IMG/VR virus record: IMGVR_UViG_2690316131_000021
Length of the DNA stretch: 20,803 nucleotides
Direction: 5' to 3' (one strand)
Source of the DNA: a virus
Lineage: Duplodnaviria; Heunggongvirae; Uroviricota; Caudoviricetes
The position numbers and the translations under genes are program-made. Numbering within the stretch: the stretch's first letter is position 1; the number at the start of each line of letters is the position of its first letter. Of the stretch, positions 13,959 through 14,202 are shown piece after piece. The notes below the pieces were generated by a model. It was not told where the DNA came from, ran no database searches, and was given only the letters and a program-made list of their open reading frames with translations.

Positions 13959-14122
13959 GAACGAGTATTGAGATGGCACATAGCCTTGCTCAAATTGGAG
14001 TCAGGTTTGTGCCAATACCAGTAGAAACAGACGAAGAATTTCATACGTTAGCCACATCCCTTTCGCAAAAGCTGGAAATGATGGTGGCGAAAGCAGAAGC
14101 AGATGAGAGAGACCTGGTATGA
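13931..14122 (+). CDS. Small b-region protein (lambda orf63-like)
   Basis: 63 aa ORF. Confidence 0.55.
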   Translation: MHKASPVELRTSIEMAHSLAQIGVRFVPIPVETDEEFHTLATSLSQKLEMMVAKAEADERDLV

Positions 14123-14202
14123 CAACCACTGAATGCATTTTTCTGGCAGCGGGCTTCATATTCTGTGTGCTTATGCTTGCCGACATGGGACTTGTTCAAT
14201 GA
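14119..14202 (+). CDS. Possible 27-aa hydrophobic peptide (MTTTECIFLAAGFIFCVLMLADMGLVQ)
   Basis: ATGA overlap with the upstream stop and with the downstream start; hand-translated, below ORF-track cutoff. Confidence 0.3.
   Translation: MTTTECIFLAAGFIFCVLMLADMGLVQ

Follow-up and report, generated by a model that had tools for sequence, protein, structure and literature searches.

Does the 76-nt interval between the orf63 homolog and the orf61-family gene of a phage 434-like genome encode a protein? We examined this question in the window, that is, the whole 20,803-nt stretch of the viral record IMGVR_UViG_2690316131_000021. A preliminary description of this DNA had placed in the interval an unlisted frame for a hydrophobic peptide, translationally coupled to the genes on both sides. 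Our analysis recovered exactly that frame: the 27 codons from ATG (14119-14121) to TGA (14200-14202) encode MTTTECIFLAAGFIFCVLMLADMGLVQ, and we refer to the frame as ORF27. Both claimed overlaps are present. The TGA stop codon of orf63 (14120-14122) overlaps the ORF27 start codon as ATGA, the A of the ATG also serving as the third base of GTA, the last amino-acid codon of the orf63 homolog, and the ORF27 TGA overlaps the orf61-family ATG at 14199, again as ATGA.

The flanking genes do not belong to the b-region, as the preliminary description had it, but to the exo-xis block of the pL operon (Table 1). Over positions 13700-14600, the window shares 99.8% identity with phage 434 (OL657226/7) and 95-99% with approximately 185 further lambdoid and Stx phage records. 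The window is phage 434-like, the locus lies in the pL-transcribed exo-xis region, and pL transcription follows the plus strand. From bet to the ea22-like gene, all junctions are overlaps or gaps of at most 6 nt when ORF27 is counted, while the same run without ORF27 contains one untranslated gap of 76 nt.

Table 1. Features of the bet to ea22-like segment of the window and of the ORF27 interval.
Feature	Position	Strand	Remarks
bet	12317-13102	+	
exo	13099-13779	+	
orf60a homolog, DUF1317	13776-13958	+	
orf63 homolog (DUF1382), upstream of ORF27	13931..14122	+	Pfam DUF1382 E = 7.8e-31; annotated in 434, lambda and RefSeq records
(GA)4 purine-rich tract, 7-14 nt 5' of the ORF27 ATG	14105..14112	+	weak Shine-Dalgarno-like element
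ORF27, 27 codons	14119..14202	+	identical in lambda; intact in most copies
ORF27 hydrophobic core, codons 6-21, CIFLAAGFIFCVLMLA	14134..14181	+	between E5 and D22; predicted membrane-spanning
N-terminal extension of "93-aa Orf61/ZapA" over ORF27, out of frame	14133..14198	+	spurious
orf61-family gene, 71 aa	14199..14414	+	RefSeq WP_000188870.1
31-aa ORF, next in the coupled chain	14411..14506	+	GTGA overlap with the orf61 stop
orf73, TraR/DksA-like	14513-14734	+	
ea22-like gene	14731-15501	+	

Two other very small frames of the window resemble ORF27 in arrangement. Ribosome profiling of lambda detected a 31-aa orf2313 between orf61 and orf73 (PMC8614690), and from its size and position the 31-aa ORF of the window would be orf2313. 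A terminator-like hairpin (14435-14453) followed by a T-run lies within its coding sequence, and translation and termination may interact there. On the minus strand, 5606-5683 holds a second tiny hydrophobic ORF, MTIYITELVTGLLVIAGLFIWGRGK, which starts with ATGA and ends with GTGA; it seems to correspond to the lambda "Orf26"-like ORF after ren in the 434 record, although this mapping is approximate and unaligned, with coordinates approximately 120 nt apart. All three ORFs have 25-31 codons, are located between annotated genes, and use ATGA or GTGA overlaps; the "Orf26"-like ORF and orf2313 are already recorded, whereas ORF27 is without a record.

An open frame of 27 codons is by itself unremarkable: the window contains 101 ATG-initiated ORFs of 20-40 aa on its two strands, and when the 76-nt interior of ORF27 is shuffled, 29% of the shuffles stay open. 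By our rough estimate, the probability that a frame bridges the interval with ATGA at both ends by chance is approximately 0.7%, and a hydrophobicity as extreme as that of ORF27 has a likelihood of approximately 0.2% among the open shuffles. For a bridging ATGA frame with a GRAVY of at least 1.6, we estimate a chance probability of approximately 5e-5. The full arrangement is unlikely to have arisen by chance.

ORF27 is conserved in lambda and its relatives, a check that the preliminary description had named. Lambda carries an identical 27-codon frame (complement 30925..31008), and the frame is kept in the lambdoid relatives. In a six-frame search, 175 records of phages and 38 of plasmids or phage-plasmids contained the peptide, always with at least 90% identity, and neither collection yielded a relative at intermediate distance. 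At least 3141 of 5426 complete E. coli genomes carry the DNA segment; a single genome can hold as many as five copies, and the copies in complete genomes total roughly 4,800. Viral contigs and records supplied 220 complete copies, of which 191 (87%) encode the identical peptide and 216 keep the ATG and 27 codons; the four exceptions are two ATA starts and two copies that end one codon early. An independent sample of 120 metagenome contigs gave a similar picture (98 of 113 identical, 111 of 113 intact). No frameshift was found in more than 330 copies from the two samples.

The family is phylogenetically narrow and, as far as the matches in the collections searched indicate, confined to lambdoid phages of Escherichia and Shigella. 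No distant homologs were found by protein searches, by six-frame searches of phage and plasmid records, or via the DUF1382 and orf61 neighbours, and all matches of a tandem-duplicated peptide query were near-identical copies, fusions arising from indels, or junctions of deletions. Two 428-aa "cluster members" turned out to be unrelated glycosyltransferase-like proteins, placed there by a clustering artefact. Likewise, the seemingly diverged orf61 matches (51-52% identity) were error-ridden assemblies, one of them IS-truncated and one of the SfI type, and the collections searched contained no truly diverged orf61 homologs. The scan of genome contigs returned mostly lambda DNA contaminating unrelated assemblies. 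Lambda DNA with the laboratory-strain orf61 frameshift occurs in assemblies of Shewanella, Bradyrhizobium, Kitasatospora, Paenibacillus, and others (loci L011-L024), and such DNA also appears as the 48,361-bp "Campylobacter phage CJLB-4" (MW057783.1) and as a 48,499-bp "Stenotrophomonas plasmid" (NZ_CP104294.1); these occurrences are almost certainly contamination.

Synonymous-site variation, the second check named beforehand, fits coding in the ORF27 frame and in no other. In our site-based N/S test of 244 copies, each segregating substitution entered the count once, and its class in every frame was compared with what all possible changes would give (kappa 3.7). The interior of ORF27 (14122-14198) showed 13 non-synonymous and 14 synonymous changes in its own frame (omega 0.33, P = 0.004), versus omega values of 1.08 and 1.67 in the other forward frames. 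The neighbouring genes behaved similarly, with own-frame omega values of 0.40 for the orf63 body and 0.38 for the 71-aa orf61 body, versus 1.3-1.9 in their other forward frames. Restricting the test to alleles seen at least twice or at least three times lowered the ORF27 omega to 0.21 and 0.14, respectively (both P < 1e-3). Counted as minor-allele copies, the variation comprised 30 non-synonymous versus 187 synonymous in the ORF27 frame, and approximately 200 non-synonymous versus 12-19 synonymous in the other two. The third codon position took 15 of the 27 interior variants, and the amino-acid changes in the core were conservative (F8L, A11V, F15L, and A21V/S). The metagenome replicate (120 loci) yielded an omega of 0.36 (P = 0.028), or 0.13 without singletons (P = 0.0018), with off-frame values of 1.3-3.8. 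Since all copies are at least 90% identical, this conservation is that of polymorphism within the module only (27 + 18 segregating changes). These results indicate that purifying selection acts on the amino-acid sequence of ORF27, which is very probably a selected coding gene.

The encoded peptide is acidic, contains no lysine or arginine, and has a GRAVY of 1.62; its hydropathy ranks second among the 101 small ORFs of the window. The Kyte-Doolittle mean is 2.33 for a 19-residue and 2.87 for a 15-residue stretch, far above the usual threshold for a membrane helix, and the apolar core comprises the 16 residues C6-A21. An AF2 model of the natural orf63-peptide fusion predicted a helix over peptide residues 3-22 with modest confidence (pLDDT approximately 58-66). 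Because the core is short and there is no positive-inside signal, the topology and stable insertion of the peptide are uncertain. With fewer than 50 residues, one hydrophobic segment of sufficient length to span the membrane or embed in it, and selection as a protein, ORF27 is a candidate small membrane protein. No family match for the peptide was found in Pfam, PHROGs, NCBIfam, or PADLOC. Its match to PHROG 21538, "membrane protein", was not significant (E = 0.68, 11 bits), and no toxin family of Pfam, NCBIfam, or PADLOC was matched, the sole hit being a chance-level one to MtrF below the cut-off (E = 0.034). The preliminary description had pointed to a role as toxin or host modulator, like Kil; neither Pfam nor PHROG revealed any similarity to Kil.

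ORF27 has been transferred as a module with its start overlap intact. Approximately 310 E. coli genomes, BL21 among them, and 19 + 15 of the sampled loci have a phage Dam-type methyltransferase gene in place of orf63 upstream of ORF27. Homology to the window begins there exactly at the A of the ORF27 ATG; the methylase TGA overlaps this ATG, restoring ATGA, and the ATG is preceded by a GGAGG at a distance of 5 nt. Phage SfI has an orf61-family gene but no ORF27; there the gene begins (MTIEHNNAL...) 7 nt downstream of an unrelated one and is served by a GAGG Shine-Dalgarno sequence of its own, with a 5-nt spacer. ORF27 is therefore a cassette that can be separated from its neighbours and carries its means of coupling with it. 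DUF1382 genes that have diverged (68-83% identity) are directly followed by other genes; thus, ORF27 is not tied to DUF1382. In the orf63 context, where only the (GA)4 tract precedes the start codon, initiation of ORF27 probably occurs by termination-reinitiation.

Rearranged forms of the locus also occur. Several contigs carry 89-aa Orf63-peptide fusions with the junction ...ADERPGMTTTE..., and a (GA)4 tract short of one GA unit gives exactly this junction. The fusions could be sequencing errors or genuine slippage, which would give a membrane-anchored Orf63. In rare contigs, deletion or recombination junctions within ORF27 fuse its first 20-25 codons to xis, the orf73 region, or other sequences. 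Downstream, a recurrent 4-nt deletion in the orf61-family gene (window-equivalent 14282-14285) was observed in three gut-metagenome contigs, and a 30-nt in-frame deletion (window-equivalent 14343-14372) in another such contig, which, like the lambda frameshift, suggests that this gene is lost fairly often while the upstream ORF27 stays intact.

We consider it likely that ORF27 is a coding gene of the pL operon, translated by coupling, whose product is a single-helix inner-membrane micro-protein and a predicted early membrane modulator. ORF27 would be transcribed together with its neighbours from pL after infection or induction, and ribosomes that finish orf63, or Dam in the other lineage, would reinitiate at the overlapping ATG. 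They would stop on the orf61 start codon (ATGA or GTGA) and be handed on to orf61, which here has almost no Shine-Dalgarno sequence. The helix (approximately residues 6-21) would most likely insert into the inner membrane, where the peptide may modulate a host or phage membrane component in the early lysis-lysogeny period; this last step is the weakest. The exo-xis region is dispensable for plaque formation by lambda.

A more far-reaching explanation is that the peptide is an effector directed at a host membrane factor governing the lysis-lysogeny outcome or the host cell cycle, and that it underlies part or all of the pro-lytic phenotype credited to "orf61". The candidate targets would be, for example, the FtsH/HflKC system controlling CII or the "Bin" replication block. 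The peptide would be made within minutes of pL firing, and the explanation would apply above all in lambda, where the annotated Orf61 is composite and truncated. We regard it as unlikely.

It is rather improbable that ORF27 is a relay in which only the act of translation matters, ribosomes being delivered to orf61 by way of a peptide without function. Such a role would fit the ATGA overlaps at both ends. Where ORF27 precedes it, the orf61-family gene has as its only Shine-Dalgarno-like element a weak GGA 8 nt upstream, compared with the GAGG of SfI, which lacks ORF27, and its start codon is polymorphic (182 ATG and 41 GTG among 223 copies, approximately 18% GTG, giving ATGA or GTGA overlaps). 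This change at 14199-14201 is silent in ORF27 (Q27). The narrowness of the family, without distant homologs, is also consistent with a relay. However, a relay should tolerate amino-acid change, whereas the omega of ORF27 (0.13-0.36) is as low as that of the neighbouring genes, the peptide is identical in 87% of copies, and the substitutions in its core are conservative. Moreover, a relay leaves the extreme hydrophobicity, seen in only about 0.2% of open shuffles, unexplained.

The interval could alternatively be an untranslated leader between orf63 and orf61 that is open by coincidence, which is in keeping with the open fraction of the shuffles and with the annotation. The ORF27 frame is annotated in none of the 13 phage and RefSeq records opened, among them 434 (two), lambda, lambda imm434, DE3, Phi24B, Stx2-II, 06-3462, phi345, Lambda_2E9, PhiR26_1, and three RefSeq E. 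coli chromosomes; that is, no pipeline behind these records calls it. The peptide sequence had no match in the literature searched. Papers on the exo-xis region name orf60a, orf63, orf61, orf73, ea22, ea8.5, and orf55 but no 27-aa ORF, and a review of lambda ribosome profiling lists only a 7-aa and a 31-aa ORF as new in this region, without a 27-aa ORF (PMC8614690). The term "unlisted" in the preliminary description thus holds for the phage and RefSeq records inspected but fails for a few GenBank E. coli annotations and for UniRef, where the exact peptide MTTTECIFLAAGFIFCVLMLADMGLVQ is a "hypothetical protein"; gene callers also picked it up on approximately 981 contigs of a large protein collection. 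ORF27 has probably gone unrecorded because it lies within the annotated orf61 in lambda. Against a leader, the variation is frame-specific with a third-position excess, as in bona fide genes, and this was replicated; the start overlap is kept across an unrelated upstream gene, together with GGAGG; and frameshifts are absent from more than 330 copies. The RNA is less structured than shuffled sequences (fold z-score +2.07), and the idea of an RNA element was rejected on this ground, together with the absence of Rfam matches and of an internal promoter; a consensus scan, which can miss one, found no sigma-70-like promoter on either strand of 13700-14800. We therefore consider an untranslated leader very unlikely.

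It is highly improbable that the real start of Orf61 is the ATG at 14133, or in lambda the one at 31024, and that ORF27 is its out-of-frame shadow. Many records and the exo-xis papers use the 14133 start for a 93-aa protein named "cell division protein ZapA" or vb_24B_7c; this ATG is invariant in 222 copies, and the PHROG 303 alignment spans all 93 residues. Selection argues for a mis-call: omega is 1.24 over the extension versus 0.38 in the 71-aa body, and two common polymorphisms, T20A and M23V, alter the amino acid in the 93-aa frame but are silent in ORF27. The SfI homolog lacks the extension and begins at the M23 position directly after an unrelated gene. The invariance of the ATG is accounted for by ORF27, since it coincides with codons E5 and C6, and the in-frame stop that precedes it is polymorphic (TGA in 154 copies, GGA in 55). 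Alone, the 71-aa form is predicted by AF2 to fold into three helices (pLDDT 88), and a published AlphaFold analysis took residues 24-93 of Orf61 as the fold (PMC8614690). Neither the ZapA name nor the homeodomain resemblance noted in that review was confirmed for the 71-aa protein: the Pfam ZapA match of the 71/93-aa protein is sub-threshold (15.9 versus 23.8 bits), and a fold search with the 71-aa AF2 model found no significant PDB match and no ZapA-like fold. Overexpressed Orf61 formed insoluble aggregates in published work. The 93-aa constructs used for expression or modelling carry 22 non-native residues, which may explain this insolubility.

The annotated lambda orf61 has an even earlier start. 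It occupies NC_001416 30839..31024 (1540-1725 of locus L004), begins at 31024 inside orf63, and is a composite of 32 codons that run out of frame across ORF27 and the first 29 codons of the 71-aa gene. A TGA-to-GGA change (window 14130) opens the frame upstream, and an A7-for-A6 frameshift (window 14258-14263) cuts it short. The review had already remarked that lambda Orf61 looks truncated and unstructured (PMC8614690).

Finally, a gene on the minus strand (14001..14186, 61 aa) that shares wobble positions with ORF27 can be practically dismissed as the source of the constraint, since its omega of 0.49 within the ORF27 interval (P = 0.07) is a weaker signal than that of the sense frame and the expected shadow of a sense-strand gene, the same frame shows an omega of 1.28 where it overlaps orf63, and no promoter-like site was found on either strand.

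Several known systems offer comparisons for ORF27. KdpF (29 aa), CydX (37 aa), AcrZ (49 aa), MgtS, and PmrR are single-pass accessory subunits or modulators in the E. coli inner membrane. Like ORF27, they have fewer than 50 residues and one hydrophobic helix, were missed by annotation, and are often encoded in operons with overlapping start and stop codons; KdpF also shares the lack of basic residues. In contrast to this group, with which it has no sequence similarity, ORF27 is phage-borne and early-expressed, and its operon contains no partner gene for a membrane complex. The type I toxins Ibs, ShoB, DinQ, TisB, Ldr, and Hok are 18-50 aa long, hydrophobic, and usually contain basic residues; they insert into the inner membrane, and their genes stand alone, with long structured leaders and antisense RNA. 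The likeness lies in the hydrophobic peptide and in a plausible route to host physiology. However, ORF27 belongs to a coupled operon in which the consensus scan showed no antisense promoter-like site, encodes no lysine or arginine, matches no toxin family, and is carried by thousands of prophages with no antitoxin apparent. Two lambda proteins, Kil (47 aa) and CIII (54 aa), resemble ORF27 in their pL operon, timing, small size, and non-essentiality, and are credited with tuning host physiology or the choice between lysis and lysogeny. They share no homology with ORF27, and neither is a transmembrane peptide: Kil targets FtsZ, and CIII, which is amphipathic, inhibits FtsH.

Our analysis also bears on published genetic work. 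In the delta-orf61 alleles of lambda and Phi24B, the whole annotated orf61 was replaced by an 87-nt scar. In lambda, ORF27 is lost entirely, along with the final 20 nt of orf63 and the coupling to the downstream ORFs, and in Phi24B, ORF27 codons 6-27 are lost. Because ORF27 is deleted as well, the published phenotypes (more lysogens, altered induction, and adsorption defects) cannot be assigned to Orf61 alone. Similarly, some of the ribosome footprints attributed to lambda orf61 may come from ORF27.

We conclude that ORF27 is a real but uncharacterised small gene, of the kind of the small hydrophobic proteins of phage early operons. No phage has been studied more closely than lambda, and how the exo-xis block affects the induction of Shiga-toxin prophages is a subject of current research. 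Few unannotated small ORFs of E. coli are as widespread as ORF27, which is found in approximately 58% of complete genomes, and a conserved, selected gene that is missing from the exo-xis maps alters how existing data are read.
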